A DNA stretch of 59,039 nucleotides, counting the filler. It is 4 parts of 4 records of this genome, joined end to end, with 100 filler letters (N's around TTAATTAATTAA, not from the genome) between each part and the next. Parts side by side here need not be neighbours in the genome. Positions count along the whole stretch, not along the records: positions 1 to 24,300 come from SRR22947725_481; 3 more parts are not named here. The stretch is one strand, 5' to 3'. Positions 1 to 17,895 of the stretch are shown one piece after another (the stretch's first letter is position 1; each line of letters starts with the position of its first letter). The translations under genes and the position numbers were made by a program. The notes beneath the pieces were generated by a model. It was not told where the DNA came from, searched no databases, and worked only from the letters and a program-made list of their open reading frames with translations.

Positions 1-8
1 CCAGAAGA

Positions 9-632
9 ATGATAAATAATAAGGGATTTAAAATAAATGACATTATAGTTGATGATGTAAAAAAGATTATTGAATTAAAAGATTTCAAAAATAAAATATT
101 AATCTCCAGTGGAACCAAAAAAAAAAATATTACAGTTTTACAATGTAACACAGAGTACCCAACTCCGCTCAGGGATGTAAACTTAAAAGCAATGTTGACA
201 ATTAAAAAAAAATTCAGTGTTGATGTTGGATACTCAGATCATACCGAAGGTATAGAGGCATCAATTGTTGCAGCAGCTTTAGGCGCTAAAATAATAGAAA
301 AACACATAACAACAAATAAAAATTTACCTGGACCCGATCACAAAGCTAGCATCACAGAAAAAGAATTAAAAGATTTAATAAGCAAAATTAGAAATGTTGA
401 AACTATTTTGGGCAACGATAAAAAAGAACCTTCTAAAAGTGAAAAAAAAAATATAAAGATTGCTAGAAATTCTTTAGTAGCAAATTCTAAAATTAAAAAG
501 GGTGAAAAATTTACATCGACAAATTTGACAATTAAAAGACCAGGCACAGGTATTTCGCCAATGAATTATTATAAAGTTCTTGGTACAAAAGCAGTCAAAA
601 ATTTTAAAAAAGATGAAATTATTAAAATATGA
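9..632 (+). CDS. neuB: C-terminal half of a nonulosonic acid synthase (NeuB/LegI family) with SAF domain; N-terminus appears foreign (chimeric or deleted)
   Basis: Motifs LQCNTEYPTP, VGYSDHT, IIEKHIT, GPDHKAS and SAF tail KRPGTGISP; only 207 aa and the N-terminal catalytic half is missing. Confidence 0.8.
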   Translation: MINNKGFKINDIIVDDVKKIIELKDFKNKILISSGTKKKNITVLQCNTEYPTPLRDVNLKAMLTIKKKFSVDVGYSDHTEGIEASIVAAALGAKIIEKHITTNKNLPGPDHKASITEKELKDLISKIRNVETILGNDKKEPSKSEKKNIKIARNSLVANSKIKKGEKFTSTNLTIKRPGTGISPMNYYKVLGTKAVKNFKKDEIIKI

Positions 633-1783
633 AGTCAATTTGCTTTGTTACATCATCAAGAGCTGATTTTGGAAGCATCAAGCTATTAATTGATGAAATT
701 ATAAATTTAAAAAAAATAGAGAAAGTTTATTTAATAATTACTGGAAGCCATACCGATAACTTATTTGGAAGTATTTCAGAAATAAGAGTTAGCAAGAAAG
801 TAAAAATTAAAAAAATTAAAATAAATTCTAAAAACAAAGATTCTTTTTCTGTTGCTAAGTCTTTTTCAGAGTCAATTAAAGCTTATACAAATATTTTAAA
901 AAGAATTACACCTGAAGGTATAGTTCTATTAGGTGATAGATATGAAATACTGTCTGCAGCTCTAGCGGCCTACATTTTAAAAATCAATATAATACATTTA
1001 GCTGGTGGAGAAAAAACAATTGGATCTTTAGATGACGGCTTTAGAAATTGTATAACTAAATTAGCTAATCTACATTTTCCCGTAGCAGAGGAGTATAAAA
1101 GAAGAATTATACAGATGGGGGAAAATAAAAAAACTGTTTTTAATTATGGAGGATTACATTATGAAAAAATTCAAAAAACCGCATATCTTTCAAAGGATAA
1201 AATTGAAAAAAAATTTAATTTTCAATTTTTAAAAAAGAATATTTTATTAACTTATCATCCAGATACAATTGATGAAAAAAAAACTATTATCAATTTAAAA
1301 GTCATTCTTAAATGTTTAAAAAAATTAAAAGATACACTTGTATTAATCACTTCACCTAATTCTGACGCTAAAGGCATTGTTATGATAAAAGAAATTAAAT
1401 CATTTATTAAGAAAAATAAGTTAAATAACTTTAAATTTTATAAATCCTTTGGAAGTGAAAATTATTTTTCGATACTAAGATTCTTAAATGGTGTGATTGG
1501 GAATTCATCTAGCGGTATCTCCGAAGTTCCTTTCTTTGGTATCAAAACTATTAATTTAGGTGATAGGCAAGCCGGAAGATTGTTAATGCCTAGCATCATT
1601 AATTGTGGAGTTTCAAAAAAAGAAATTAATGTTGCGCTTAAAAAAATATTTAAAAAAAATAAATTTAATACAAGAAAAAATAAATTATTTTACGGAGATG
1701 GAAATAGTTCAAAAAAAATTGTAAAAAAAATTATAAATTTTAATTTTAAAAAATATAAGAAAAAAGTGTTTGTTGATTTATAA
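629..1783 (+). CDS. neuC: Hydrolysing UDP/GDP-N-acetylhexosamine 2-epimerase (NeuC/LegG family)
   Basis: VTSSRADFG, LGDRYE, HLAGGEKT, GNSSSG, NLGDRQ and YGDGNSS motifs; overlaps the neuB stop (ATGA-type coupling). Confidence 0.9.
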   Translation: MKSICFVTSSRADFGSIKLLIDEIINLKKIEKVYLIITGSHTDNLFGSISEIRVSKKVKIKKIKINSKNKDSFSVAKSFSESIKAYTNILKRITPEGIVLLGDRYEILSAALAAYILKINIIHLAGGEKTIGSLDDGFRNCITKLANLHFPVAEEYKRRIIQMGENKKTVFNYGGLHYEKIQKTAYLSKDKIEKKFNFQFLKKNILLTYHPDTIDEKKTIINLKVILKCLKKLKDTLVLITSPNSDAKGIVMIKEIKSFIKKNKLNNFKFYKSFGSENYFSILRFLNGVIGNSSSGISEVPFFGIKTINLGDRQAGRLLMPSIINCGVSKKEINVALKKIFKKNKFNTRKNKLFYGDGNSSKKIVKKIINFNFKKYKKKVFVDL

Positions 1784-2431
1784 TTAATTAATTTTCTGTT
1801 TAATTTGTCTTTGAAAATTTACTACTGAGTGATTTTCTTTGATTTCACTAATAACTACACTACCCATTCCTACTTTACAGTTTTTTCCAATTTTGATCTT
1901 TTGATGAATATTACTTCCAGAACCTATAAAAGTATTTTCTCCAATTTTACAATTTCCTCCAATACTTGTTTGAGGCATTATTGAAACATAATCATTGATA
2001 ATCGAATTATGACCTATGTCGGTAAAATTTGATATTAAAGAGTAATTTTTTATTGAAACTTCAAAACTTAGATGTACATGATTAAAGATTATATTCCCTA
2101 CACCTATTTTTAAATCTTTTGGTATTATATTTTTAGGATGGATAAGATTTGGTATCTTAAATTTATTTTTAATGATCTCATCGTTATAAATTTTTTTTCT
2201 TTTAAATGGGTCAGTGATGCCACAAATTGCAAAAATATTTTTAGATTTAAATTTTTTACAATTTGAATAAATTTTTACACCATCCAAAATTTTCCCATCT
2301 AGTTTTTTACTAGAGTCAATATAACCCAAAACTTCCCATTTATTATTGCTAAAAAGACTAATCTCTCTAATTAGTTTAAATGTTTCTCTACCTGCAGAAC
2401 CAGCTGTAAAAATTATTATTTTTTTTTTCAC
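1784..2431 (-). CDS. NeuD/PglD-like hexapeptide-repeat sugar N/O-acyltransferase
   Basis: N-terminal Rossmann-like AGSAGRE, PNLIHP, IGHNS and left-handed beta-helix repeats; GTG start. Confidence 0.85.
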   Translation of the reverse strand: MKKKIIIFTAGSAGRETFKLIREISLFSNNKWEVLGYIDSSKKLDGKILDGVKIYSNCKKFKSKNIFAICGITDPFKRKKIYNDEIIKNKFKIPNLIHPKNIIPKDLKIGVGNIIFNHVHLSFEVSIKNYSLISNFTDIGHNSIINDYVSIMPQTSIGGNCKIGENTFIGSGSNIHQKIKIGKNCKVGMGSVVISEIKENHSVVNFQRQIKQKIN

Positions 2432-2434
2432 TTT

Positions 2435-3505
2435 TTAACTATTTGAAGCCGATAACTCTTCTTTAGAAAATATTTCTTTAGCGTCAGCAGGTTTGAAAAT
2501 AGTTTGTCCAGGCATAGTCATAAATTTTGATATAAAATTTTTATCTTCTCCAGCAAGGCAAAGATCACTGTGTTCTCTGAAGTACTTAATTTTAAAACCA
2601 AAATCTATTATTTCCTTTAAAGACTGTTTAAAAATATTTCCGATTTTTATATGAACATATGGACAAACTAAAACATCACCAATTGGGGTTACGTAAACTC
2701 TATTAACCGTCGTGCAACCTAAAATCTTTTCATAATTTTTATCAAATGGATTCCATATGTTTCTTACTAAATTTTTATACTCTTTTCTAATTTTTCTAAG
2801 ATACTCTCTGTCTTTGTCATCGCAAATTATTTCATCCATTTTTTGCCACATCCCTGAAGGTACAGCTACATTTAGAAGGGTTTTATATTTTTTATTTTTT
2901 GAATAATCTAATAATTCCTTAAAATGCTCAGTGTTAGCATTATAGTGGCCAACAGTTATATTTAGATATGGGTCCATACCAGCATCTTTAACATGCTTTA
3001 AGGCTTCAATTGCTCTTCTCCAAGAGTCTTTTCTGCCTCTAATTTCATCATGAATTTTTTCATCCATGCTATCAATACTAACTGAAACTCTGCTAACTTT
3101 ATATTCTGCTAATTTTTTTGCCATTGCCTTATCAAGATAAAATCCATTTGTGGTTAAATACATATAAAATCTCTCTGGCCTTATAGCTTCAAGAACTTCA
3201 AATAACTTTTTAGGTTGCAAAAGCAATTCACCGCCTTGTAAATCAAATTCAAAGTAACCCAATTCATCTGCCTCGTCGGCTAATCTTTTTATTGCGCCAA
3301 TATCTAAATATTCTTTTACATGATCTCCCTTAGGAGAATTAGTAAAGCAATATTTACAACGAAGGTTACAGGCGTTGTTAAAGTTAAGGTCGATACCTCT
3401 AGTTTTTGTGCCTACCTTTCCATCATTTTTTTGAACATAGTCGTAAAAATCTTTTAACTTTTTTACTAATCTAGGCTTATTTAATAAAGAGGAAGCAATT
3501 GGCAT
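2435..3505 (-). CDS. Radical SAM enzyme with SPASM/Twitch-like C-terminal domain
   Basis: CNLRCKYC (CxxxCxxC), QGGE, TTNG, VSIDS and C-terminal GC...GDVLVCPY...IGNI. Confidence 0.9.
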   Translation of the reverse strand: MPIASSLLNKPRLVKKLKDFYDYVQKNDGKVGTKTRGIDLNFNNACNLRCKYCFTNSPKGDHVKEYLDIGAIKRLADEADELGYFEFDLQGGELLLQPKKLFEVLEAIRPERFYMYLTTNGFYLDKAMAKKLAEYKVSRVSVSIDSMDEKIHDEIRGRKDSWRRAIEALKHVKDAGMDPYLNITVGHYNANTEHFKELLDYSKNKKYKTLLNVAVPSGMWQKMDEIICDDKDREYLRKIRKEYKNLVRNIWNPFDKNYEKILGCTTVNRVYVTPIGDVLVCPYVHIKIGNIFKQSLKEIIDFGFKIKYFREHSDLCLAGEDKNFISKFMTMPGQTIFKPADAKEIFSKEELSASNS

Positions 3506-3506
3506 T

Positions 3507-3962
3507 TTAGTTATTTATATTATAATTTTTAATTTCTTCAGGTAATATCAAATTAAATTCAGCCTGGCAAACAGTTTGATCCTTAACAGTTCCACGTCCT
3601 TCAAAAGTAGCCATACCTCTCTTAAAAATTTTCACCTCAGTATTGATTTCTAACTTATCTCCTGGCAAAATTTTTTTTACAAATTTTAATTTATTTGCTG
3701 ATACTAAGTACATTATTTTACCTTTGTTACCAGGCATTGTTAAAATTGACATTGCTGCCATTTGAACTAAAGACTCTATTTGTAACATTCCAGGCATATT
3801 TGGATCTTTAGGCCAATGCACTTTAAAAAACCACTCATCTTCCTTCAAAACTTTGTATCCGTTAGCGTATTTTCCAGGCTCAACCTCAGTTACATAATCT
3901 ATCATTAAATAAGGATCCCTATTTTGCTGGTATTCTAAAATAGCTTTTTTATCTAAAATCAT
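3507..3962 (-). CDS. FabZ-like 3-hydroxyacyl dehydratase (hotdog fold), island paralog
   Basis: NRDPYLMID and FFKVHWPKDPNMPGMLQIESLVQ match the FabZ HFP..P.MPG.L..E..AQ motif. Confidence 0.85.
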   Translation of the reverse strand: MILDKKAILEYQQNRDPYLMIDYVTEVEPGKYANGYKVLKEDEWFFKVHWPKDPNMPGMLQIESLVQMAAMSILTMPGNKGKIMYLVSANKLKFVKKILPGDKLEINTEVKIFKRGMATFEGRGTVKDQTVCQAEFNLILPEEIKNYNINN

Positions 3963-3964
3963 AT

Positions 3965-5149
3965 TTACTTAATATTTACTACCCTGCTTAAAGATTTAAT
4001 TGTATCAAATCCGTCCCAAACTAAATCAAATTCAAAAGCTTGACCAATTTTAACTATTCTGTCAGCTCCTAGCAAATTATTTTTCAAAATCAAATTTTTA
4101 AAATCTTTATTTTGAAAACCAAAATAAGTGATCGTTTGACATTTTTTTGTAATCAACTGAGATATTTCATCTAGTTTTTTTAATTTAATTTGATAAACTA
4201 TTCCACTACTACCTCTTACGTTTTCAATATTTTTAATATTTTTATCTACATCAACAAGATATAAATAGTTTTCAAACATCTTTATTTTTTTTATTAATTT
4301 AATATTCATAATCTTATCTATCAAATTATTATATTTTTTCATAACATGGACATCATCAAATTTGAATTTTTTAGATGCAATTTTGCTGATTTTTTCCCAA
4401 AAATAATTTTCTTGCCCTTTAATAATTTTTCCAATCCAAAATATAAAGTGTGGAGAATTACATGCCATCTGATTCATAGTAAAAACATCATAAAAATATT
4501 TTCTAGCTAAAATATCAATTTCTAACTTGGAAAGTTTATTAAATTTTTCTGCATTAATAACTGATAAAGAATATCTATCTGCAAAATTAATATCAAGACA
4601 TCTTGGTTGTGTATCAATTTTTTTAATTGATTTCACGGTTTTGTCTCCTCCCCAAACAATTCTACAGTCGGATTTAGATGAAATTTTATTTGTAATTTCT
4701 GGATTTTTTTGATGATTATACTCTATAAAAAAATTTGATTTTTTTAATTTTAAATATTTATTTGACTTAAAAATTTTTTTTATTTTTGTGATAATAACAT
4801 TTTTTTCTTTTGATACATTAGAGGATACTTTTATGATATTGGTATTTCCACTCAGCAAACCAAGAATAAAAGAAAACATAAAATTTATTGGTACATTTTT
4901 CGGACATACATGAAAAACAAGACCTCTTCCAATTCTAAATTGATCATTTTTAAATTTTTTTTTAAATTTTAAAATATTTTTTCTGTTGCAAAATAGCATT
5001 AAGGAGAAAAGCTCAGGAGATCGAAAAGTATTTTTGTCCTTTTTAAGCTCAATAGAAAAAGAATCTAGAAAATTTACTGAAATATCAGAGTAAGGTTCCA
5101 ATATCTTTATTCTTAAACTATTTAAAAATTTCAAATTATTTTGTATCAC
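3965..5149 (-). CDS. LuxC-like acyl-CoA reductase
   Basis: GRGLVFHVCPKNVP, WGGDKTV, FADRYS, NQMACNSP (catalytic Cys), DRIVKIG and WDG motifs. Confidence 0.85.
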   Translation of the reverse strand: MIQNNLKFLNSLRIKILEPYSDISVNFLDSFSIELKKDKNTFRSPELFSLMLFCNRKNILKFKKKFKNDQFRIGRGLVFHVCPKNVPINFMFSFILGLLSGNTNIIKVSSNVSKEKNVIITKIKKIFKSNKYLKLKKSNFFIEYNHQKNPEITNKISSKSDCRIVWGGDKTVKSIKKIDTQPRCLDINFADRYSLSVINAEKFNKLSKLEIDILARKYFYDVFTMNQMACNSPHFIFWIGKIIKGQENYFWEKISKIASKKFKFDDVHVMKKYNNLIDKIMNIKLIKKIKMFENYLYLVDVDKNIKNIENVRGSSGIVYQIKLKKLDEISQLITKKCQTITYFGFQNKDFKNLILKNNLLGADRIVKIGQAFEFDLVWDGFDTIKSLSRVVNIK

Positions 5150-6200
5150 TACAACCTCGTACTTCAGCTTCTTTTGATCTACCGTGGACTAAAAAATGCT
5201 TTCCATTTAAACCACATCCACACTTGAAATTTGGATCTACTATTGAACCAATATCTTCAGTAATTATATTATGGCCAGGATAGCTCGATGGTAAAATTGA
5301 AATTAATTGTATTAACCCCTTTTTACCTGGTGGAAGAGTTTTAAAATTTTTATCTCTAATAATAACATCTGAAAATATAGTGTTTACAAAATAACCATAT
5401 TTACACTCGAAGAAAATAGAACCTGTTTGTTCTACTAATCCGTAATAATTTACTACATTTTCGATTAGAAAATTTTTTTTAAGCAGATTTTTAAAAATTT
5501 CGTTAGAAATTTTTTGTTTTTCTAGTTTTTTCCAACCTCCACCATGAATTAGCACTGCATTTTTAAATTTATATTTAGATGAGTCTAAATTATTAAGAAA
5601 ATAATTAAATATAAAAGAAGTAAATCCGAAAATAAAAATTTTTTTAGATGAGTATTTTGTTAAAAACTCATCTAATATTTCATAATTAATTTTATTATTT
5701 TTATCTAAAAGATAATATTTTTTACTAGCTATCAATGAAAAACCATGTACTGCTGCTATACTCGCAGAGAATTCCTTTTTACTGATTTTAGATAGATCCT
5801 TATCAACAATTAACATTGGATGTCTTGTTCTCCCAAACTTATTTGATAATATTTTACTTAAAGCTTTTACTTGATTTTGTGCGTTATTTTTATCTAAGTA
5901 AATTTTAGATCTGTTTGCACCTGATGTTCCGGATGATGAAATCTTTTTAAATGTATCTTTATCTGTAAAACTCTTTAAATCATTAGTTTTAAAAATCTGA
6001 ACAGGTAAAAAGGGTAGGTCTTCTATTTTTTTAATCAGATCTGAAGAAAAAGTTAATCGAATAAAATTACTATACTTTTGACAATTTTTTTTGTGAAAAT
6101 CTGTTAAGGATTTTATCATGTTAAAAAATTTTTTCTTATGCTCAAAATTTTGAGTCTCAAAAACATCATTTCTATCTAAAAAATTTTCAATATTATCCAT
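5136..6200 (-). CDS. LuxE-like acyl-protein synthetase
   Basis: LPFLPVQIFK, SSSGTSG, HGGGWK, YYGLVEQ, SYPGH.IITEDIG and C-terminal GRSKEAEVRGCS (acylated Cys). Confidence 0.88.
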   Translation of the reverse strand: MDNIENFLDRNDVFETQNFEHKKKFFNMIKSLTDFHKKNCQKYSNFIRLTFSSDLIKKIEDLPFLPVQIFKTNDLKSFTDKDTFKKISSSGTSGANRSKIYLDKNNAQNQVKALSKILSNKFGRTRHPMLIVDKDLSKISKKEFSASIAAVHGFSLIASKKYYLLDKNNKINYEILDEFLTKYSSKKIFIFGFTSFIFNYFLNNLDSSKYKFKNAVLIHGGGWKKLEKQKISNEIFKNLLKKNFLIENVVNYYGLVEQTGSIFFECKYGYFVNTIFSDVIIRDKNFKTLPPGKKGLIQLISILPSSYPGHNIITEDIGSIVDPNFKCGCGLNGKHFLVHGRSKEAEVRGCSDTK

Positions 6201-7581
6201 AATTAATTAGTCTAGTTAAACTCACCTTCCCTCGAGAATTTCTAGGAAATTTTATTACCTTCACTATTTTGAAAAAATTTTTATTTAATTTAAATTCAGA
6301 AAAAAGAAGACTTATGATCTGATTTTGATTTTTATTAGAAGTTGTGAAAATAATAATTTTCCCTTTTTTTTCGACTATCTCAGAAAAAATTTTCCGTTTT
6401 GATAAGAAATTTTTAATTTCATTCGAATTAATTCTATAACCAGCTACTTTTAGAAAGTTATCTTTTCTACCAACCAAAAAATAATAACCTTGTTTATCCT
6501 TCCAAGCAAAATCCCCAGTTTCTAAAATCTTTTTTTTATTAGATTTTTTATCTAAGTCATTTTTACTTGAGCTATAACCCATGAAAACATTCTTACCCGA
6601 ATAAATAATTTCACCAATTTTTTGATTTTCTTTTTTTTTAAGCATCATTTTTCCACCTGGGATTACTTTTCCGATACTGCCTATCTTTTCTTTTGCTTTT
6701 GAGAAGGGCAAGTAGCTTATCCTCGGTGAAGCTTCCGTTTGACCATACATTTGAATAAATTTTATTTTTTTTATTTTACATGTTTCTAAAAAAAAATTAA
6801 TTTCTTCAGGCTTCAACGAGCCACCGGCTTGTGTTAAATATTTTAAGTATCTAAAATTCATTTTATCAAATTTTAGTTTTTTTAAGATTTCATAATGAAG
6901 TGGTACTCCGCCAAAACTTATAATTTTATTATTATTTAATTTTTCCCAAAATTTTTTTTCAAAAAAACTTAGCTTATTGATAACTATCTTTGATCCTTTA
7001 ACAAAATGAGAATTAATAATTGATAATCCATAACTATAACTTGGTGTCATAGTTGTTATTGTTGTATGAGTATGGTCAATTTTAAGATACTTAGAAATAT
7101 TTAGGGCATTATCATAAATATTTTCATAGCTTAATTTTACAAATTTAGAAGAGCCCGTGCTTCCTGAGGTTGACAACATAACAGCAAGATCTTCATTAAT
7201 AGTATTTTTAATTTTTGATACTTTTATTAGAAAAAAATTATAGTAATTAATCCTTTCATGTTTTGGAAGTATCTTTAAATTTTCAAAAGGTAAAAAAACA
7301 TAATTTGGTTTATACAGATTAATTATTTCACTTATATTATTTGAATTGGTATTTTCATCAATTAAAATAATTGGAACATTTCGTTTTAAGGCAAAGAAAT
7401 ATATTTCAAAAAAACCTAAAGTGTTATTTGCTGCAATTAAAATTAAATCTCCTTTACTTATAAAGTTTAATTTTTCCTCAGCCCTAGACAACAAATATTT
7501 ATATTTTATTTTTTTATTTTCAGTAATCAAAAAAATATTATTTGAAAATCTTTTTATATTTTTATTTATTATATTTTTCAC
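6193..7581 (-). CDS. AMP-binding adenylation enzyme (acyl-CoA/acyl-carrier ligase)
   Basis: STSGSTGSSKFV, YSYGL, QAGG, MYGQTEA, TGD and GRKD motifs. Confidence 0.9.
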   Translation of the reverse strand: MKNIINKNIKRFSNNIFLITENKKIKYKYLLSRAEEKLNFISKGDLILIAANNTLGFFEIYFFALKRNVPIILIDENTNSNNISEIINLYKPNYVFLPFENLKILPKHERINYYNFFLIKVSKIKNTINEDLAVMLSTSGSTGSSKFVKLSYENIYDNALNISKYLKIDHTHTTITTMTPSYSYGLSIINSHFVKGSKIVINKLSFFEKKFWEKLNNNKIISFGGVPLHYEILKKLKFDKMNFRYLKYLTQAGGSLKPEEINFFLETCKIKKIKFIQMYGQTEASPRISYLPFSKAKEKIGSIGKVIPGGKMMLKKKENQKIGEIIYSGKNVFMGYSSSKNDLDKKSNKKKILETGDFAWKDKQGYYFLVGRKDNFLKVAGYRINSNEIKNFLSKRKIFSEIVEKKGKIIIFTTSNKNQNQIISLLFSEFKLNKNFFKIVKVIKFPRNSRGKVSLTRLINYG

Positions 7582-8305
7582 TTTTATATTTGATTTTTTT
7601 AATCATGATTTTAGCTAACTCAAAATCTGATTGTGTATCGATATCTAAAAAAAATTGATTGGTTATGTATGGTATTACGGATTTTCCATGAGTTTTTTTG
7701 TTTTCAATTAAAAATTTAGTGTTAAGAATATCAATTAAACCATTTGGTATATAAGTCTTAGTGTAGCTTTGTCTGGGCTTATTAAGTTTATTTAGATCAA
7801 AATCTTTCTTGATAATAGAGCATAATTTATTATTAATAATTCTCATTGTTTTATAAGATGGTTGAGACATTTCAGACACAGATCTCATTGAGGAATTTTT
7901 TTTCTTATTTTTTAAGAAAAATCTTATTCCTTTCTCAATTACTTTATTTAATCTTAATGGAACTGTTGGACTTAAATGAGCAATATAATTTGGTAGCTTA
8001 ATTTTTTTCTGTCGAAAAAAATTTATAAAATACATATATAATTCATTATCAGTAGATTTATCATGAGAAATTTTTTTTGGTCTGATAAAAGGAATTTCTG
8101 CTCCAAATTTTTTTCCTATTTTTGCATACTTTTTTGAGTCTGTTAAAAGAAAAATTCTTTCAAAAGAATTTGAGAATTTCGCAGAATTTATTGTATGAGC
8201 TAAAAGAGGAAGACCATCAAAATTTTTGATATTCTTATTTTTCACAGATTTAGAACCAGATCTTGCTGGTACTACAGCCCAAATTTTTAACTTGCTATTT
8301 TTCAT
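7562..8305 (-). CDS. Acylneuraminate (nonulosonate) cytidylyltransferase, copy 1
   Basis: VPARSGSKSVKNKN, PFIRP, LSPTVPLR, PNG and DIDTQSDF motifs. Confidence 0.9.
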   Translation of the reverse strand: MKNSKLKIWAVVPARSGSKSVKNKNIKNFDGLPLLAHTINSAKFSNSFERIFLLTDSKKYAKIGKKFGAEIPFIRPKKISHDKSTDNELYMYFINFFRQKKIKLPNYIAHLSPTVPLRLNKVIEKGIRFFLKNKKKNSSMRSVSEMSQPSYKTMRIINNKLCSIIKKDFDLNKLNKPRQSYTKTYIPNGLIDILNTKFLIENKKTHGKSVIPYITNQFFLDIDTQSDFELAKIMIKKIKYKSEKYNK

Positions 8306-8315
8306 ATAACATTTA

Positions 8316-8332
8316 TGTTCAATTATTGAACA
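8316..8332. promoter_or_regulatory. Palindromic operator candidate TGTTCAATTATTGAACA
   Basis: Perfect 8-bp inverted arms around one central base, in the 60-bp divergent intergenic region; the same motif recurs at 12842 and 14194. Confidence 0.7.
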
Positions 8333-8365
8333 CTATTAAATTTTTTAAACAATTACAAATTTTTT

Positions 8366-9142
8366 ATGAAGCATCCGAAGCATTTAAATTTAGCACAAAT
8401 CAAAAAATACTTTATAAAACATGGTCTTAAATCTGTTGTTGTCGAATTTGAAAGATCAACTAAAAAAAATTCTGTAAGCACTTACCCACCAGACTTAAAC
8501 GATTTATACAGATTACATAGTTCAATTATTCTTAATAAGAGGTTGTGCACTCTAGAATTTGGATCTGGGTGGTCTTCAGTTGTAATAAACCACGCACTTA
8601 AAATAAATAAAAAAAATTATGAGAATATAGTTAAAAAGAAAAAACTGAGATTCCCAAAAGCCTTTCAACATTTTGCAATAGAAAATGAAAAAAAATATCT
8701 CAATATTTCCAAAGGTAGAGTAGAAAAATATTTTAGAAAAAACGATGTAAAATTTTTTTATTCAAAAAATATAATGACAACTTACAACGGAATTATTTGC
8801 AATGAATATGAAAGTTTACCTGCAATTAATCCAGATTTCGTATACTTAGACGGACCAGATCAATTCAACATTTTTAAAAAAAAAAATAATATTACAATAG
8901 CAAGGCAAGACATGATGCCAATGAATTGTGATCTACTTAAATTAGAATTTTTTTTAACACCTGGAACAATTATAGTTATCGATGGCAGAGGTGCAAATGC
9001 TCAATTTTTAAAATATAATTTTAAAAGAAAATGGAAATATGAATTTAAAAAAAAATATGATCAACATATTTTTGAATTACAAGAACAAGCTTTAGGAGAA
9101 TTTAATTCAAGTCAATTAAGCTTCTATAAAAAATCTTTTTAA
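8366..9142 (+). CDS. Putative class I SAM-dependent methyltransferase-like protein
   Basis: LEFGSGWSS (motif I), DFVYLDGP and LTPGTIIVID. Confidence 0.6.
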   Translation: MKHPKHLNLAQIKKYFIKHGLKSVVVEFERSTKKNSVSTYPPDLNDLYRLHSSIILNKRLCTLEFGSGWSSVVINHALKINKKNYENIVKKKKLRFPKAFQHFAIENEKKYLNISKGRVEKYFRKNDVKFFYSKNIMTTYNGIICNEYESLPAINPDFVYLDGPDQFNIFKKKNNITIARQDMMPMNCDLLKLEFFLTPGTIIVIDGRGANAQFLKYNFKRKWKYEFKKKYDQHIFELQEQALGEFNSSQLSFYKKSF

Positions 9143-10272: not shown

Positions 10273-10276
10273 TTTT

Positions 10277-10897
10277 TCAAAGTTTATCACTTAAAAATTT
10301 ATTTATTAGATTTAATCCAGGCAACCTACTTTTTTCAGGGTGAAATTGACACCCGGTTATATTATCTTTTTTTACAATTGCAGGGACACTTATTTCTCCA
10401 AAATCATAATATGCAACCAAATTTTCTGGTTGTATTTCTGTGGCATAAAAAGAATGGATAAAATAAAACTCATCTAAATTTGGTGATACTTTATGAGCAA
10501 ATTGTTTGTTTATTTTAAGGTTATACCAACCTATGTTAGGTATTTTATATTTTTTTATTTTTTGAATTGGAAGAGGTCTTATTTTTCCTTTAATTAATTT
10601 CAAACCTTCACACAATCCGTGCTCACTACTATCCTCAAATAGTAATTGCATTCCTAAACAAATACCCATAATCGGTTTGTCTTTAGAGATTTCTTTTAAA
10701 AATTTAAATATATTTTTTTTTTTTAAATAATTTACCCCATCTTTAAAAGAACCTACTCCTGGTAAAATAATTTTTGAAGCTGTCTTTATTTCATCTTTAT
10801 CATTGCTTATTAAAACATTTTTCTCATATTTTTCTACGGCTCTTTTAATGCTTAAAAAATTTGCATTGCCAGTATCAACAATAATTATTTTTTTCAT
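10277..10897 (-). CDS. HisH-like glutamine amidotransferase subunit (WbuY type)
   Basis: ILPGVGSF, GICLGMQLL, FYFIHSF and QFHPEKS triad; adjacent to an N-acetyl sugar amidotransferase. Confidence 0.9.
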   Translation of the reverse strand: MKKIIIVDTGNANFLSIKRAVEKYEKNVLISNDKDEIKTASKIILPGVGSFKDGVNYLKKKNIFKFLKEISKDKPIMGICLGMQLLFEDSSEHGLCEGLKLIKGKIRPLPIQKIKKYKIPNIGWYNLKINKQFAHKVSPNLDEFYFIHSFYATEIQPENLVAYYDFGEISVPAIVKKDNITGCQFHPEKSRLPGLNLINKFLSDKL

Positions 10898-11634
10898 ATA
10901 CTAAAATTTAATGCACTCTTAATTTCCTGAATATCTAACAAATTATAATGAAGAACCCGAGAAAGAGCTAAACCATCAATACTAATCCTGCTTAAATTTT
11001 TAATATGCTGCAAGTTTCCGACCCCCCCGCTATATATTAAAGGTAAATTAGTGTGGTTCTGTACTTGATTTAATAATTCAAGATCTGGACCTTTTCCGGT
11101 TCCTTCTTTATCAATGGATGTAATCATTATTTCACCCGCTCCAAGATCCTCACATTTTTTGATCCAATCAGTAACTTCAATTTCTGTTCGATCTCTACCG
11201 TTAGTAATAAAAACTTCCCATCTATTATTTTCAAATTTCTTTACTTCAATATTTACAACAACACTTTGAGATCCAAATTTCTTAGATAGTTTATTTATAA
11301 AATTAGGATTTTTTACAGCCTGAGAATTTATAAAGACTTTGTCTGCTCCAGCCATAAATGATTTTTCTGCATCTTCTAACGTTCTTATTCCACCACCAAT
11401 CGTAATTGGAACAAAAATTTCTTTGGACGCTTCAACTAAAATGTTTCGAAGCTGATTTCTGCCGTATAGTGTAGCTACTGTATCTATTAGTATTAATTCA
11501 TCTATTTTTTTATCATAGTATTTTTTTGCAAATTGACCTGGATCTCCGATTTTTTTTAACCCTTCAAGGTTTATGCTTTTAATTAAATGCTCCCCTTTAA
11601 TATCTAATCTTGCGATAGTTCGGATTTTTCGCAT
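10894..11634 (-). CDS. HisF-like cyclase paralog (WbuZ type)
   Basis: IARLDIK, PITIGGGIR, GADKV, FGSQSVV, GAGEI and SIDKEGTGKG. Confidence 0.9.
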   Translation of the reverse strand: MRKIRTIARLDIKGEHLIKSINLEGLKKIGDPGQFAKKYYDKKIDELILIDTVATLYGRNQLRNILVEASKEIFVPITIGGGIRTLEDAEKSFMAGADKVFINSQAVKNPNFINKLSKKFGSQSVVVNIEVKKFENNRWEVFITNGRDRTEIEVTDWIKKCEDLGAGEIMITSIDKEGTGKGPDLELLNQVQNHTNLPLIYSGGVGNLQHIKNLSRISIDGLALSRVLHYNLLDIQEIKSALNFSI

Positions 11635-11637
11635 TTA

Positions 11638-12825
11638 TTATTTCCAAACCGTTTGTTTAAGCTCCCATTTTGATCCGTTTTTTCTCCAAAGATGTTTTGG
11701 TCTAAACTTATCGATTATTTCATTAAATTCTTTTTCATTCATATCTAAATAATCTAATATTTCTTTAAAAAAAATTTTTGGAAATTCTCCATCATATTTT
11801 TTTACTAAAGCAACCCCTTCATCTCTAGTTATGATATCATTTCTAATCTCAAGAGCGGCATCTTCTGTTGCTCTACCTCTACCTGTTTTAATAAACCAAG
11901 TGTAATGATGCAGGCCATCTATTTTGTCATCGAGGCTTGAGTATTTAGTATATGTGCCCTCACTTCTACCGTGTGGATTTACCTCAAAATTTGATTTTTC
12001 TTTAGCAAAATAAAAATTAGATTGCGGGTTATAATTAATAAAATAAGGTAGCTGTAAAACTTTTATATCCTGTTCCTGAAAATCTTTCTCTTTTAGAGGA
12101 AAATAAGGATTTAAATCTTTTTTATAAATGTTAAATTTTTCTAATTCTTTTAAAGAATATCCAGCATAATATAAATCTTTATCTTCTTTATATGTGTAAA
12201 GTGCTTGGCTTAAAAATTTATTATTAAAAGAGTGCAAATTTCCGCCTGAACCTCTTTCTGCCTGGCTGTCACCATAAACAACTAGTTTAATTTTTTTTTC
12301 TAAAGCTATTCTTAAAGGAAAGTAGACTTGACCTTGTGCGAAGGGTTGAAAGGGGTGGAGTAAATTTTTAAAACTTAATCTAGTAAGTTTTCTATGTACT
12401 GACCCATCTGGTTTATGAAAATAATTATCATAACCAGAGTCGACCCATTGTATGTAATTTCTCCAACCAACATCTGTGTACATATGTGGAGCCCAAGTAC
12501 ATGTAAGAGGATTCATTTTGTATTTATGTTTTAAAGTATGTGCAACGAATATTGAGTCTTTTCCGCCGCTACCAGGAACTACAACATCATAGTAGCCGTC
12601 ATTTCTTCTGTATTTATCTAGCAATTCAATTAACTCTTCCTCCCTTTTTTTCCAGTCAACAGTCTTTTTGTAGTCATAATATAAACAAGCAGAGCAAACT
12701 TGATTTTCGTCAAAAGAAGTTCTGGTTTGTGCTCTGTCTTTTTTATCTTCATGAGTAACCGAGCCTAGAAATCTTTGGTTAGATTCTACACATTTTACAC
12801 AAAATTTTACTTCTTTATTTATCAT
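11638..12825 (-). CDS. N-acetyl sugar amidotransferase (WbuX/PseA family)
   Basis: N-terminal C..C / CSAC, YDVVVPGSGGKDS PP-loop, MNPL, YSSLDDK and IRND.ITRDEG. Confidence 0.9.
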   Translation of the reverse strand: MINKEVKFCVKCVESNQRFLGSVTHEDKKDRAQTRTSFDENQVCSACLYYDYKKTVDWKKREEELIELLDKYRRNDGYYDVVVPGSGGKDSIFVAHTLKHKYKMNPLTCTWAPHMYTDVGWRNYIQWVDSGYDNYFHKPDGSVHRKLTRLSFKNLLHPFQPFAQGQVYFPLRIALEKKIKLVVYGDSQAERGSGGNLHSFNNKFLSQALYTYKEDKDLYYAGYSLKELEKFNIYKKDLNPYFPLKEKDFQEQDIKVLQLPYFINYNPQSNFYFAKEKSNFEVNPHGRSEGTYTKYSSLDDKIDGLHHYTWFIKTGRGRATEDAALEIRNDIITRDEGVALVKKYDGEFPKIFFKEILDYLDMNEKEFNEIIDKFRPKHLWRKNGSKWELKQTVWK

Positions 12826-12841
12826 TTGTAATAGGTATTAA

Positions 12842-12858
12842 CGTTCAATATTTGAACG
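12842..12858. promoter_or_regulatory. Palindromic operator candidate CGTTCAATATTTGAACG
   Basis: 7-bp inverted arms in the second divergent intergenic region; outer pair co-varies (C/G versus T/A in the other copies). Confidence 0.7.
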
Positions 12859-12903
12859 CTATACAATTTTATGCTAAATATCAATATATATTTATCAAGT
12901 AAT

Positions 12904-14210: not shown

Positions 14211-14226
14211 CTTACTTAAAAAGCTA

Positions 14227-14537: not shown

Positions 14538-16253
14538 ATGAGCTTATCTATAATTTCAAGATATAATAATATCTTTGACAAGAAAGAAAAAAAGGAATTA
14601 TTTTTTTTTTTTAGTTTAATCATAATTACCATGGTGCTAGAGGTTTTTAGCATTGGATTAATTATTCCTGTGATAATGTCGATCATGAATCAAGACATAT
14701 CCTCAGCTGTTCCATTTTTAAAACCATTTTTTATTATTTTAGATGGTTATAATAGCCAGGAGGTAATCATATTTACTTCATTGATGCTGGTATTAGCTTA
14801 CTTGCTTAAAAATCTTTACCTTCTTTTTTTTTTAAATATTGAAGGAAATTATTTATCTAAAATTGAGAAAAATTTAAAAACTAAAATTTTTCACAAATAT
14901 TTATCACATCAACATTACACTTATTTTAAAACAAATTCTTCTAAGTTACTTAGTAATATCACAATGGATGTAGCTATCGTGGTTCAGGCATTCAAAAATT
15001 TCTTAATACTAATGGCTGAAATTACAGTTGCAATCGGAATTTTTGCACTTTTATTTTATGTTGAGCCAATTATGATGTTATTTAACTTAGTAATTATAAT
15101 AGCTGGATTATTTTTCTTTAATCTTTACTCGAAACAGAAAGTAAAAAATTTATCATTTTCAAGAAAAAAAAATACAGATGATTTATTTTTGACTTTAAAT
15201 AATTGTTTCGATTCTATCAAAGAAATAAATGTATTTAATAAAAATTTATTTTTTGAAAATATTTTTAATAAAAGTAATCATGAAATATATAAAATAAATA
15301 AAAAATTTCATATTGTTCAAGGATTACCTAAAATTTTTTATGAATTTATAGGCGTATTGTTATTAATGGCTCTTATAGTAATTATGACATTTTCTTTAAA
15401 GGAAAAAGATATAATTATTGCTTTTTTAGCTCTCGCTGGAGCATCTGCTTTCAGACTAATACCATCTGCAAATAGAATATTAGTTGCATATCAGTATTTA
15501 GGGTTTGCAAAAAAATCCTTATCATTAATCAATCAAGAATTAAAAAATAATTCATTAGATAATATAAATAAAAAGCAACAAATTGATTTCCAAAATAAAA
15601 TTGAATTTAAAAATGTATCTTTTAAATATAAAGATAGAGATAGCTACATTCTAAAAAATGTTAATCTTAAAATTAATAAAAGTGATAAATTCTTAATTTA
15701 TGGTGAAACGGGGTCTGGAAAGAGCACATTTATTGAACTACTGCTTGGCTTGCTTAAACCAACAACAGGTTCAATTGAAGTTGATAACAATGACGTAAAT
15801 TTAAATTTTAAAGAGTGGTGTAAACATATTGGGTATATTCCCCAAAAGGTAACCTTGATAGATGGAAGTATATTATCAAATATTGCATTTGGCATAGAGG
15901 AAAATAAAATAGATTTTAATTTAGTTAAAGAGGCGATATCGTTATCTGAGATAAGTTCATTAATAGAACGTTTGCCAAATGGAATTAATACAAATGTAGG
16001 TGAATTTGGCTCTAATTTATCAGGCGGTCAAATTCAGCGGTTAGGCATAGCTAGAGCAATTTATAGAAATCCAGATATGCTAATTTTAGATGAGGCGACA
16101 AATGCATTAGATGAAGAAATGGAACAAAAGGTTATTTCAAACATTTTGGAAAAATTTAAAGATAAAGCTTTAATAATTATAACACACAATAAATCCCTTT
16201 TAACTGAACTAAACAAATTTAAGATAGAAAACTCAAAATTAATCTCAATATGA
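14538..16253 (+). CDS. ABC transporter, fused TMD-NBD (PglK/MsbA-like glycan flippase)
   Basis: TM region, GETGSGKS, LSGGQIQR and LILDEATNALD. Confidence 0.88.
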   Translation: MSLSIISRYNNIFDKKEKKELFFFFSLIIITMVLEVFSIGLIIPVIMSIMNQDISSAVPFLKPFFIILDGYNSQEVIIFTSLMLVLAYLLKNLYLLFFLNIEGNYLSKIEKNLKTKIFHKYLSHQHYTYFKTNSSKLLSNITMDVAIVVQAFKNFLILMAEITVAIGIFALLFYVEPIMMLFNLVIIIAGLFFFNLYSKQKVKNLSFSRKKNTDDLFLTLNNCFDSIKEINVFNKNLFFENIFNKSNHEIYKINKKFHIVQGLPKIFYEFIGVLLLMALIVIMTFSLKEKDIIIAFLALAGASAFRLIPSANRILVAYQYLGFAKKSLSLINQELKNNSLDNINKKQQIDFQNKIEFKNVSFKYKDRDSYILKNVNLKINKSDKFLIYGETGSGKSTFIELLLGLLKPTTGSIEVDNNDVNLNFKEWCKHIGYIPQKVTLIDGSILSNIAFGIEENKIDFNLVKEAISLSEISSLIERLPNGINTNVGEFGSNLSGGQIQRLGIARAIYRNPDMLILDEATNALDEEMEQKVISNILEKFKDKALIIITHNKSLLTELNKFKIENSKLISI

Positions 16254-17311
16254 AAAACTTAAGCAGAAACCTTATTTTACCTAATAAGACGCTGAAAGAA
16301 GCTTTAAAAAAAATGGAAGAAACTTTTTATAAGTGTTTAATCGTAGTTAATAAATCAAATAAGCTTCTTGGCACCATCACTGATGGGGACATAAGAAGGG
16401 CAATTATCAGAGGAGCAAAATTTTCGTCAATTTTGAAAAATTACTATTATAAAAAACCATTTTTTGTTAATGAAAAAATATTTTCTGGAAAATTAAGTTT
16501 AATTAAAAAAAATTTAGAGTTGAAAGATTTGGACCTAGTGCCAATTATTGATAAAAATAAAAAAGTAATAAATATAAAATCAAAATCTGAAATTTTTAAA
16601 GAAACGAAACATAAAATTCAATCAGTACTCAAGTCAATTCCTGTTGTAATAATGGCAGGCGGGAGAGGGACAAGATTATTACCCCACACCTCAACTATTC
16701 CAAAACCTTTAATGCCAATAGATAACAAATCGATGATTGAGCATGTGATGGATAAGTTTATTTATTTCGGATCAAAATTATTTTTTATAACTATAAATTA
16801 TAAAAAAGAGTTAGTTAAAGCTTTTTTTTCAATAAATGATAAAAAAATTAAAATTAAATTAATTACAGAAAAAAAACCGCTTGGAACTGCAGGATCTTTA
16901 TCACTGATAAAAAAAAAAATTAAATCTACTTTTTTTGTTATAAACTGTGATGCATATATTTCATGTAATTACAAATCACTTTATGAGTTTCATAAAAAAA
17001 ATAAATCTATCCTAACAGTTGTTGTTTCAAAAAAAAACAATTCAATTCCTTACGGTGTATGTAAGGTAAACTCAAAAGGCTTACTGGCCTCTATAAAAGA
17101 AAAACCAAGCATCGATTTCCTAGCAAATACTGGTCTTTATGTTATGGAACCATCAATAATTAATTTTATTAAAAAAAATTCTTTTTTCGATATGAATCAG
17201 TTAATTGATCTTTTACTGAAGAAGAAAAAAAAAATCAGTATTTTTCCAATAAATGAAGATGAATGGAGCGATTTGGGTAATTGGAATAGTTTAAAGAAAT
17301 TTACTAATTAA
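16250..17311 (+). CDS. CBS-domain sugar-phosphate nucleotidyltransferase (PtmE/LegX-like)
   Basis: GTITDGDIRR CBS pair, IMAGGRGTRL, PKPLM, PLGTAGSL and WSDLG. Confidence 0.88.
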   Translation: MKNLSRNLILPNKTLKEALKKMEETFYKCLIVVNKSNKLLGTITDGDIRRAIIRGAKFSSILKNYYYKKPFFVNEKIFSGKLSLIKKNLELKDLDLVPIIDKNKKVINIKSKSEIFKETKHKIQSVLKSIPVVIMAGGRGTRLLPHTSTIPKPLMPIDNKSMIEHVMDKFIYFGSKLFFITINYKKELVKAFFSINDKKIKIKLITEKKPLGTAGSLSLIKKKIKSTFFVINCDAYISCNYKSLYEFHKKNKSILTVVVSKKNNSIPYGVCKVNSKGLLASIKEKPSIDFLANTGLYVMEPSIINFIKKNSFFDMNQLIDLLLKKKKKISIFPINEDEWSDLGNWNSLKKFTN

Positions 17312-17313
17312 AT

Positions 17314-17895
17314 ATGATTTCAGGAAAAAAATTTATTGCCATCGTACCCGCAAGAATAGGAAGTAAAAGATTAAAGATGAAAAACTTGAGAGAATTTAAT
17401 GGCAAGCCTTTATTTTTATGGTCAATGATGTCAGCGAAAAAATCAAAATATATTGATAGGATATATTTATCTACAGATAGTAAAAAAATTAATACTATTG
17501 CTTTCAAAAATGGTTTTAAAATTTATAATTTGAGAAGCAAAAAACTTTCAACAGATAAAACAACATCTTCTGAATTAATTTTAAATATTTTTAGTAGAAT
17601 AAAAGAAAAATTTGATTTTTTCATTTTATTACAACCAACTTCACCTTTGAGACAATCAACAGATATAGATTACGCAATCAAAAGAATAGTTCAAAAAAAC
17701 AAAAAAAGTCTTGTTTCAGTTAATGCAAAAAACAATCGAAATAATGGAGCTATATACATTCAAAATATAAGTTTTTTTAAGAAAAATAAGAAATTTAGAT
17801 ATAAAAATTCGATGATTTATAAAATGCCTGCAAAAAAATCGATAGATATTGATACCAAAAAAGATTTTGATCAAGCATTAAAGTATTGCTTATGA
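17314..17895 (+). CDS. Acylneuraminate cytidylyltransferase, copy 2 (short form)
   Basis: VPARIGSKRLKMKN, LSTDS, LLQPTSPLR, NGAIY and SIDIDT..DF. Confidence 0.88.
   Translation: MISGKKFIAIVPARIGSKRLKMKNLREFNGKPLFLWSMMSAKKSKYIDRIYLSTDSKKINTIAFKNGFKIYNLRSKKLSTDKTTSSELILNIFSRIKEKFDFFILLQPTSPLRQSTDIDYAIKRIVQKNKKSLVSVNAKNNRNNGAIYIQNISFFKKNKKFRYKNSMIYKMPAKKSIDIDTKKDFDQALKYCL

Follow-up and report, generated by a model that had tools for sequence, protein, structure and literature searches.

The closest described counterparts of the genes analyzed here, a run of seven minus-strand open reading frames (ORFs) in a 59,039-nucleotide stretch of marine DNA, are found in flagellin glycosylation islands and in the tetronate gene set of Vibrio cholerae O1. 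The sections of PMC7874193 on Aeromonas Group II flagellin islands place genes for an acyl carrier protein (ACP), a 3-oxoacyl-ACP reductase, an AMP-synthetase, luxE, and luxC between pse genes, and they report for strain AH-3 a pseudaminic acid (Pse) derivative of 376.14 Da together with a 102-Da moiety that the authors did not identify. Excerpts of PMC4875605 list Acp, LuxE, LuxC, CaiC, and FabG in many islands of Enterobacteriaceae, with FabZ in one strain, and read the set as possibly producing a liposugar. An extract of PMC4522980 names LuxC, LuxE, FadD, TktA, TktB, two FabG proteins, an ACP, and an acetyltransferase (Maa) among the flagellar genes of Dickeya zeae EC1. For V. cholerae O1, passages of PMC3441752 and PMC4772473 propose that the corresponding set makes a 2,4-dihydroxybutanoyl group on perosamine; the route to 3-deoxy-L-glycero-tetronate, in which RfbN has a LuxE domain, is termed a ‘putative pathway’ (Morona 1995, as cited in PMC4772473), and wbeL is ‘predicted’ to serve tetronate synthesis (PMC3441752). 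The flagellin glycan of Treponema denticola is given in part of PMC13439194 as a 2-methoxy-4,5,6-trihydroxy-hexanoyl nonulosonic acid. In open-access full text, no paper was found on the biosynthetic genes of the T. denticola glycan, or on a transketolase in connection with the glycosylation island of Pseudomonas aeruginosa PAK. A galactosyrin preprint in which LuxC and LuxE are named refers to a luxCDABE reporter and has no bearing on these genes.

The stretch, called the window below, consists of four parts of four records joined end to end with 100 filler letters between the parts, and positions 1 to 24,300 come from SRR22947725_481. It carries a low-GC (guanine–cytosine) surface-glycan island of an uncultured marine bacterium. 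We read the seven-gene run, with a probability of about one half, as one half of a modular carrier-protein acyl-tailoring system within a legionaminic-acid-type pathway: a short acid would be loaded onto an ACP, converted to an aldehyde by reduction, lengthened by a transketolase, and tailored before it serves to N-acylate a nonulosonate precursor. A preliminary description of the run had not recognized its gene combination as a characterized pathway; as the partial sources cited above indicate, related modules of Lux-like, adenylate-forming, ACP, and FabG genes are on record in flagellin islands, without a tested function. The analogy that it drew to RfbL and RfbN of V. cholerae is apt, but the quoted passages call that pathway ‘putative’ or ‘predicted’ (PMC4772473, PMC3441752).

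ORF calling places the seven genes at positions 1784–8305, and adjacent ORFs are separated by gaps of 1–3 nucleotides or overlap by 8–20 nucleotides, which confirms the exact span and tight packing of the minus-strand run described previously. Pfam and NCBIfam profile scans of 38 ORFs across positions 1–42170 of the window upheld all seven family names (Table 1). They also bear out the claim that luxA, luxB, and luxD are missing, as these genes had no match among the 38 ORFs; there was none either among the 21 ORFs of L092, a contig of the relative genome G202. Among the seven proteins are an adenylate-forming (ANL) ligase and a radical S-adenosylmethionine (SAM) enzyme, referred to below as rSAM.

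Table 1 Features of the window, with positions, strands, and the matches on which the assignments are based.
Feature	Position	Strand	Length and matches
CMP-nonulosonate synthetase-like cytidylyltransferase	7562..8305	-	247 aa; PF02348 CTP_transf_3
ANL (adenylate-forming) ligase	6193..7581	-	462 aa; PF00501 AMP-binding
LuxE-like acyl-protein synthetase	5136..6200	-	354 aa; PF04443, 179.6 bits
LuxC-like acyl-thioester reductase (aldehyde-forming)	3965..5149	-	394 aa; PF05893, 105.2 bits
FabZ-like hot-dog dehydratase	3507..3962	-	151 aa; PF07977; NF000582, 110.4 bits (cut-off 113)
Radical SAM enzyme with twitch/partial-SPASM C-terminal domain	2435..3505	-	356 aa; PF04055 Radical_SAM, PF13353 Fer4_12, PF13186 SPASM
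PglD/VioB/PerB-class left-handed beta-helix amino-sugar N-acyltransferase, LegH position	1784..2431	-	215 aa; PF00132 Hexapep, PF17836 PglD_N; TIGR03570 NeuD/PglB/VioB, 155 bits (cut-off 160.8)
NeuC/LegG-type hydrolysing UDP/GDP-GlcNAc 2-epimerase, convergent with the run	629..1783	+	TIGR03568, 360.9 bits (cut-off 235.9)
NeuB/LegI-type nonulosonate synthase, C-terminal part, cut by the window edge	3..632	+	PF03102 and SAF; TIGR03569, 241.9 bits on 177 residues
Likely promoter region (divergent intergenic) between the run and the orf258/LA_1612-family genes	8306..8365	.	60 nucleotides; ORF coordinates
HisH/WbuZ/WbuX-type amidotransferase trio (acetamidino-type sugar modification)	10277..12825	-	TIGR01855, TIGR03572, TIGR03573
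CBS and sugar-1-phosphate nucleotidyltransferase, then second short PseF/NeuA-like cytidylyltransferase	16250..17895	+	Profile matches
tRNA-Val, end of the island	24009-24083		tRNA scan

Related loci were located with an alignment of 39 LuxE homologues as the anchor. The metagenome scan produced 593 pattern matches, 537 of which were confirmed as relatives, and the best 80 loci were analyzed. Their gene content was determined by tblastn and blastp with the window proteins and with off-window proteins of L001. This genome contig (93% identity in LuxE) and the metagenome contig L004 (99% amino acid identity) are syntenic with the window across the whole region. The full-view set comprises the 32 loci whose sequence extends 1.5 kb or more upstream of LuxE and 5.9 kb or more downstream of it. 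Nine genes, encoding the ANL ligase, LuxE, LuxC, FabZ, rSAM, a FabG-like short-chain dehydrogenase/reductase (SDR), the two halves of a split transketolase (TktN and TktC), and an ACP, occur together in 25 of the 32 full-view loci. In 24 of these 25 they are on one strand in identical order, the exception being L063, where the ANL gene is displaced and inverted. The order is also kept in L004 and L005, where a block of transferase, neuC, and neuB genes interrupts it. The other seven full-view loci are L006 and L030, with no SDR, transketolase, or ACP in view, L038, which is rearranged and lacks FabZ, SDR, and TktN, L061 and L062 without FabZ and rSAM, L078 without FabZ, rSAM, and transketolase, and L081 without rSAM. 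The ANL gene is present in 55 of 56 loci with at least 1.5 kb upstream of LuxE, and LuxC follows LuxE in 65 of 66 loci with sufficient downstream sequence. The median identity across loci is 88% for rSAM (49 loci), 65% for FabZ, 60% for TktN and ACP, 56% for TktC, 50% for LuxE, 47% for SDR, 39% for the ANL ligase, and 38% for LuxC; the values for SDR, transketolase, and ACP were measured relative to L001.

The conserved unit thus delimited by gene order is the nine-gene cassette, with the FabG-like SDR, split transketolase, and ACP as its second half. By the same comparison, the seven genes of the run are a mosaic and not an evolutionary unit, composed of the first five cassette genes flanked on each side by an add-on of legionaminic-acid (Leg) type. 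In the window lineage, the transferase-neuC-neuB block has apparently been inserted between the rSAM and SDR genes, and it would therefore have pushed SDR, TktN, TktC, and ACP beyond the left edge of the window. The preliminary description had treated the seven genes as the unit and had overlooked the transketolase, both halves of which belong to the off-window part, as do four of the nine cassette genes in all; the chemistry that it put forward (activation, reduction, dehydration, and a radical step) accordingly has no transketolase step. Its remark that the operon has no ACP or FabG-like gene holds within the seven genes, but not for the locus, because both an ACP and a FabG-like SDR are located left of the window in L004 and L001. 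It had also named in advance a failure of the genes to co-occur across genomes as the outcome that would speak against it. They do co-occur: dozens of metagenome contigs, independent of one another, show the order ANL-LuxE-LuxC-FabZ-rSAM. The expected company of LuxC, LuxE, FabZ, and rSAM with a cytidylyltransferase was found for the first four, but not for the last, which is missing from that position in L005 and of which any representative is in view in just 11 of the 32 full-view loci; it is not a conserved member.

It is scarcely credible that the seven genes are adjacent by accident and have no joint function. The gaps and overlaps of a few nucleotides join all of them, and the collinearity of the five-gene core in loci whose ANL, LuxC, and LuxE proteins share 38–50% identity, which indicates that the gene order has been kept over a long divergence, contradicts such an origin. 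What can be said for it is that the cytidylyltransferase and N-acyltransferase are not conserved neighbors of the core. The signal scans of positions 1–9200 say nothing either way: the promoter consensus scan produced 65 promoter-like sites with 62 expected, which is the chance level, and the terminator scan produced zero terminator-like sites. Two metatranscriptome runs matched a fraction of 0.11–0.12 of the sampled words of the stretch.

In L001 and L092, the genes to the left of the window are, in order, neuB, the FabG-like SDR, TktN, TktC, an 80-residue PP-binding ACP, and a PhyH-type dioxygenase. The two transketolase halves resemble true transketolases far more than DXS or the E1 component of pyruvate dehydrogenase (PDH-E1). 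TktN of L019 matches the split transketolase 6yak with an E-value of 9.9e-68 and human TKT with 3e-44, compared with 9e-10 for DXS and 5e-6 for PDH-E1, and the transketolase model NF004559 is the top NCBIfam match for both halves, although below its cut-off. The ACPs share a WDS motif in which the serine is kept. No ketosynthase, malonyl-CoA:ACP transacylase (FabD), or enoyl reductase was found among the scanned ORFs of the window cassette, L001, L019, L092, and the other annotated loci, and the genes are therefore not a system for fatty-acid synthesis.

The last result bears on the idea that the product of the cassette has a long chain, as a fatty aldehyde, a fatty alcohol, or an acyl ‘liposugar’. 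Annotations such as LuxC/LuxE, FabZ, FabG, and ACP invite it, and a product of this kind has been proposed speculatively in passages of PMC4875605 and PMC7874193. We consider it highly improbable. In addition to the three chain-elongation enzymes, the cassette lacks LuxD; a true transketolase would have no role in lipid synthesis; the ANL ligase resembles ligases of short acids; and the orphan masses from Aeromonas are small (+60 and 102 Da). LuxC and LuxE are also far under the cut-offs of the luminescence equivalogs, with 52.3 bits against 750 for NF052251 and 68.8 bits against 550 for NF052244. The long-chain lipid reading was rejected for the lack of ketosynthase, FabD, and FabI, the presence of the transketolase, and the short-acid character of the ANL ligase.

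The active-site features of the first cassette proteins are retained. The ANL ligase keeps the TSGSTG motif and the C-terminal GK motif. Among proteins of solved structure, its closest relatives include the oxalate-, 4-hydroxybutyrate-, and malonyl-CoA ligases, and it matches the NCBIfam model of the 2-oxoglutaryl-ACP ligase AmcH with an E-value of 3.2e-29, below the cut-off; we infer that it loads a short acid onto the ACP. The sole match of LuxE in a sequence search of the PDB is the LuxE chain 7xc6_E, and all of 39 homologues keep its Cys350, which is located five residues from the C-terminus. Similarly, 7xc6_A is the sole PDB match of LuxC, and in the alignment Cys230 is the counterpart of the cysteine in the QQAC motif of that chain; in PMC9157457, Cys-286 as the acylation site is mentioned only in the title of a reference. 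FabZ keeps the H49-W-P...P-G motif and the glutamate of LQIES. In L064, a 795-residue ORF labelled LuxE may be a LuxC-LuxE fusion. In L014 and L053, a class-III (omega-type) aminotransferase gene is located beside that of the ACP, and such aminotransferases are present in 8 of the 80 loci; in some variants the Lux-made aldehyde may be aminated instead of extended.

The radical SAM enzyme has invariant cysteines in 26 sequences at C46, C50, and C53 (CX3CX2C), in the motif C264-X11-G-X4-C281, and at C316. The full seven-cysteine SPASM motif with its two auxiliary clusters, as we take it to be defined, is absent; C228 is kept at 90%, and the Pfam SPASM match is weak (27.7 bits). The enzyme looks twitch-like, with one predicted auxiliary cluster. 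A Foldseek search with its AlphaFold2 (AF2) model (pLDDT 76.3) matched SuiB, SkfB, CteB, anSME, viperin, and MoaA about equally well, with TM-scores of ~0.55. Radical SAM enzymes of the anSME/BtrN type oxidize alcohols. In two sister cassettes, at positions 8176–10211 of L081 and 3642–5671 of L083, the interval from FabZ to SDR contains, in place of rSAM, a GMC-family FAD oxidoreductase of ~535 residues and an ORF of 142–144 residues without a family. The occurrence of a GMC oxidoreductase in this position is a weak hint, from two loci, that the reaction of rSAM could be an alcohol oxidation. Further genes of L081 encode a second FabZ-like protein and a zinc-dependent alcohol dehydrogenase, and L083 has an aldo/keto reductase. 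With 88% median identity in loci where its LuxC, ANL, and LuxE neighbors are at 38–50%, rSAM is the most conserved gene of the cassette, and we have found no explanation for this difference. Beside the cassette, B12-binding radical SAM proteins (~550–580 residues) and a second radical SAM type (~413 residues) occur in 11 and 12 of the 80 metagenome loci, respectively, and may add C-methyl or other groups.

Two members of the run, namely the cytidylyltransferase and the N-acyltransferase of the PglD/VioB class, are variable add-ons from a legionaminic-acid-type pathway. The cytidylyltransferase is closest among solved structures to NeuA CMP-sialic acid synthetases (E-value 4e-21) and matches TIGR03584 PseF with 132.7 bits, below the cut-off of 205.7. 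The nearest solved structures of the N-acyltransferase are VioB, PglB, a WeeI-like protein, PerB, and PglD, and the solved relatives VioB, PglB, PerB, and PglD all N-acylate NDP-4-amino-6-deoxyhexoses. Six of the 80 metagenome loci have a NeuD-like match, and the transferase gene directly follows rSAM in four of the six (L004, L005, L006, and L069), as it does in L001 of the relative genome. AAC(3)-like transferases occur in 19 of the 80 loci, usually with a DUF4910 protein (14 of 80).

The acyl group might be made for another amino sugar of the same glycan, such as a 4-amino-4,6-dideoxyhexose comparable to the perosamine of V. cholerae O1, with the nonulosonate genes as mere neighbors. The closest partly understood analogue does acylate perosamine and not a nonulosonate; DegT-type aminotransferases (11 of 80 loci) and the AAC(3)-like transferases (19 of 80) are present, and CDP-hexose and heptose-type pathways are encoded in the same island. 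We nevertheless regard this as unlikely, because the cassette of the window lineage has the N-acyltransferase, neuC, and neuB genes inserted into it and is capped by the cytidylyltransferase, neuB is directly upstream of the ANL gene in many loci, and the Aeromonas data link a module of this kind to a modified Pse mass.

The coupling to a legionaminic- or pseudaminic-type sugar that the preliminary description had suggested is supported by the context. NeuC and NeuB of a legionaminic-type pathway are predicted in the window, where their genes abut the run, and LegB- and LegC-like genes are nearby in the relative genome; 25 of the 32 full-view loci, and 32 of the 80 loci overall, show neuB, and 7 of the 80 show neuC. 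Full-length NeuB has 334 residues in L001 and L004. In L092, the PhyH gene is followed by an NDP-sugar dehydrogenase, a LegB-like dehydratase, and a LegC-family aminotransferase, and then by heptose-type genes and a second NeuB. The LegB-like protein scores 108.9 bits against a cut-off of 475 and the LegC-family protein 285.4 against 420, although these are their best or near-best matches. The Leg, Pse, or Neu stereochemistry of the product is not readable from sequence.

The frequent position of neuB directly upstream of ANL with neuC out of view (neuB occurs in 32 and neuC in 7 of the 80 loci) would also suit a different role for the cassette, in which Lux reduction and transketolase build an aldehyde or ketose skeleton that the adjacent NeuB-type synthase condenses with phosphoenolpyruvate to a novel ulosonic acid with no N-acyl group. 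Transketolase chemistry builds sugars, NeuB is encoded twice in the relative genome, and there are two cytidylyltransferases in the window. An ACP and an ANL ligase, by contrast, imply a thioester that is passed to an acyltransferase, 13 of the 32 full-view loci have a recognizable N-acyltransferase alongside the cassette, and a full Leg-type set (LegB, LegC, transferase, NeuC, and NeuB) already feeds NeuB. A novel ulosonic acid is for these reasons very unlikely to be the product.

Under the acyl-tailoring reading that we prefer, the steps could be as follows. The ANL ligase would adenylate a short, probably dicarboxylic or hydroxy acid and load it onto the ACP. LuxE would then adenylate the remaining free distal carboxylate and pass it by way of its C-terminal cysteine to LuxC, which would reduce it to an aldehyde. 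The split transketolase would add a two-carbon ketol unit from a ketose phosphate to this aldehyde, and the SDR would reduce the new ketone, giving a polyhydroxy-acyl-ACP. FabZ would remove a 3-hydroxyl, after which the twitch-type rSAM would perform an oxygen-independent oxidation or another radical step. The PglD/VioB-class transferase would place the acyl group on the 4-amino group of an NDP-4-amino-4,6-dideoxy-HexNAc, the later N7 of the nonulosonate. Completion of the sugar and its activation with CMP would then fall to NeuC, NeuB, and the neighboring cytidylyltransferase.

Several points weigh against this reading. The order of the steps is a guess, and so is the starter acid. Acetyl-CoA is the normal substrate of PglD/VioB-class enzymes, so that the N-acyltransferase of the window may simply be a LegH of the usual kind, in which case the acyl group would go elsewhere. 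NeuD- or AAC(3)-like genes are in view in just those 13 full-view loci, and most of the loci without a NeuD-like gene have an AAC(3)-like transferase with DUF4910 or no recognized transferase. L006 and L030 have the first five cassette genes, and SDR, transketolase, and ACP are not in view there. The ACP, SDR, and transketolase genes are outside the window, and their presence in this genome is inferred from the synteny of L004 at 99% and L001 at 93% identity. Neither the PDB sequence search nor the ESM Atlas, which returned generic names, nor the AF2 model with Foldseek assigned a specific reaction to rSAM. No paper with a product or enzymatic test of a LuxE/LuxC/transketolase/ACP module was found in open-access full text.

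A more specific and decidedly tentative proposal, which we think doubtful, is that the nine genes form an ACP-tethered ‘sugar-acid assembly line’. Distal Lux reduction, two-carbon extension by transketolase, and oxygen-independent oxidation by rSAM (or a GMC oxidoreductase in the two sister cassettes) would give a C5–C6 polyoxygenated acyl group on the legionaminic acid of abundant ocean bacterioplankton, and versions of the line with Lux alone or with Lux and transketolase would account for the 376-Da Pse derivative and 102-Da moiety of Aeromonas and for the T. denticola nonulosonate. By our own arithmetic, 316.127 - 42.011 + 102.032 = 376.148, compared with the reported 376.14. The masses fit the replacement of acetyl by C4H6O3 (dihydroxybutanoyl), which also speaks for the acyl-tailoring reading itself, and the free 102-Da moiety could have the same composition. 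The T. denticola acyl group fits the product expected from a 2-hydroxy C4 diacid after distal reduction, addition of a two-carbon ketol unit, ketoreduction, and O-methylation. This parallel is one of chemical likeness, in which genes are not part of the comparison, and it too counts among the weaknesses of the argument.

Bases 1–24000 of the window are a surface-glycan island that ends at the tRNA-Val gene; their GC content is 21–29%, compared with 29–40% elsewhere in the window. The island also encodes a MarR_EPS regulator, a PglK-like exporter, enzymes of a CDP-glucose pathway, and a GT2 protein. The ORFs scanned in the window and in L092 included no member of a flagellar family; this search did not extend to the rest of the genome. 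Two genes at positions 8366–10272 are divergent from the run: orf258, which belongs to no family, and a gene for a putative O-antigen biosynthesis protein of the LA_1612 family (TIGR04441 with 234.9 bits). L005 lacks orf258, the LA_1612-family gene, and the cytidylyltransferase, and its hisH abuts the ANL gene, so that the three genes look like a swappable block. The second cytidylyltransferase of the window (17314–17895) has 193 residues and covers profile positions 1–132 of 222. L005 has a counterpart of equal length at 74% identity, and the protein may therefore be naturally short instead of the product of a broken gene. Just before the tRNA-Val gene, at 21398–23964, are a further radical SAM gene (300 residues, twitch-like matches) and a 544-residue ORF without a family.

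Other genes accompany the cassette in parts of the metagenome set. At positions 2782–5661 of L033, directly upstream of neuB and the cassette, is a trio encoding proteins of ~446 residues (a weak match to the metallo-beta-lactamase fold), 338 residues, and 168 residues, and the arrangement is similar in L024, L028, L039, L052, and L072. The 338- and 168-residue proteins had no Pfam family even at E-values up to 1. A ~520-residue protein without a family, u518, precedes neuB in 9 of the 80 loci. In L092, positions 8200–18529 encode GmhA, an HddA-like kinase, a transaldolase, phosphatases, Gfo/Idh/MocA oxidoreductases, the second NeuB, and another nucleotidyltransferase; from this stretch, the G202 island may make a second ulosonic or heptose-derived sugar.

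The cassette is a strain-variable island trait, as a LuxE relative with an E-value of at most 1e-20 was found in just 1 of 201 genomes around the nearest available genome; among 100 high-quality genomes there was none. LuxE-family relatives at E-values up to 0.001 number 7491 among 7999 scored candidates. For rSAM, 793 relatives were found at E-values up to 1e-10, and the best 120 of the 793 are all at least 80% identical, with more than 120 clusters at that level; 10 pattern matches to rSAM among viral contigs gave zero confirmed cases. With the possible source run excluded, 77–94% of the sampled words of the stretch are present in each of 16 metagenome runs, which are of seawater or aquatic origin and belong to 8 studies. 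The genomes of relatives are 0.7–1.1 Mb. A one-piece tmRNA, matching RF00023 over the full model, is located at positions 51330–51677, and its tag is predicted by ARAGORN as ADYGQMAVA; the window also contains a TonB-dependent receptor (34077–36185) and an arginine operon with N-acetylornithine carbamoyltransferase. Alphaproteobacteria are known for a two-piece tmRNA, and SAR11 bacteria are not known to have TonB receptors. Therefore, the ‘Pelagibacteraceae’ label of L001 may be wrong, and it seems more likely that the bacterium is a gammaproteobacterium with a small genome.

Phage receptors, resistance to grazing, and immune recognition are shaped by nonulosonic acids and by the N-acyl groups that decorate them. 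To our knowledge, the enzymes for acyl groups beyond acetyl, acetimidoyl, and 3-hydroxybutyryl are largely unknown. For about a decade, members of this cassette family from pathogens and from bacteria that live with plants have in passing been given the label ‘fatty acid synthesis’, with no product assigned, and the marine form is abundant. The nine-gene unit with transketolase and ACP turns the vague label ‘lux-like’ into a testable pathway. A transketolase that acts on a carrier-bound aldehyde, or a radical SAM enzyme that acts on an acyl-ACP sugar-acid, would be new enzymology if the pathway is as proposed.

Compared with the luminescence LuxC and LuxE, the marine proteins belong to the same Pfam families, match the chains of complex 7xc6 and no other PDB entries, align at the active-site cysteine of LuxC, and conserve the C-terminal cysteine of LuxE. 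By contrast, the marine cassette has no luxA, luxB, or luxD, its proteins score far below the equivalog cut-offs, its context is glycan synthesis, and its substrate is probably short and polar. With the type II fatty acid synthase it shares FabG-, FabZ-, and ACP-type genes, but not ketosynthase, malonyl-CoA:ACP transacylase, or enoyl reductase.

The legionaminic acid pathway of Campylobacter proceeds through steps named LegB, LegC, LegH, LegG, LegI, and LegF, with a role for PtmE. A homologue of each step is found in the window or directly to its left: NeuC/LegG, NeuB/LegI, the PglD-class transferase, the cytidylyltransferases, the CBS-nucleotidyltransferase, the LegB-like protein, and the LegC-family protein. 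Unlike in Campylobacter, most scores are below equivalog cut-offs, and the transferase is embedded in an acyl-building cassette.

The genes rfbK-O (wbeK-O) of V. cholerae O1 encode what we take to be an ACP, an ANL ligase, an iron-containing alcohol dehydrogenase, a fused LuxC-LuxE protein, and a left-handed beta-helix acetyltransferase. The combination of ACP, ANL ligase, Lux-type reduction, and a left-handed beta-helix N-acyltransferase with an amino-sugar pathway is common to this tetronate cassette and the marine locus, the ACP of the latter being that of L001, L004, and L092. The marine cassette differs in that LuxC and LuxE are separate ORFs, in that transketolase, SDR, FabZ, and rSAM take the place of the RfbM-type iron-containing alcohol dehydrogenase, which is absent from the scanned ORFs of the window, L001, and L092, and in that the target would be a nonulosonate and not GDP-perosamine.

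The flagellin-island modules resembling fatty acid synthases, from Dickeya, Aeromonas, and the type 12 islands of Pantoea and Cronobacter, were compared with the marine locus by their published gene lists. They have the same ANL, LuxE, LuxC, SDR, and ACP families, and the transketolase is split in Dickeya as well. All five families are present in one glycan locus across the window and L001, L004, and L092. In contrast to the flagellin islands, the marine cassette adds FabZ and a conserved twitch-type rSAM, has one SDR instead of two and a PglD/VioB-class transferase, and is located in a polysaccharide-type island, with MarR_EPS and a PglK-like exporter and no flagellar genes among the scanned ORFs. 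The marine version with FabZ and a twitch-type rSAM is a new form of a putative glycan acyl-tailoring cassette that recurs in the published record.

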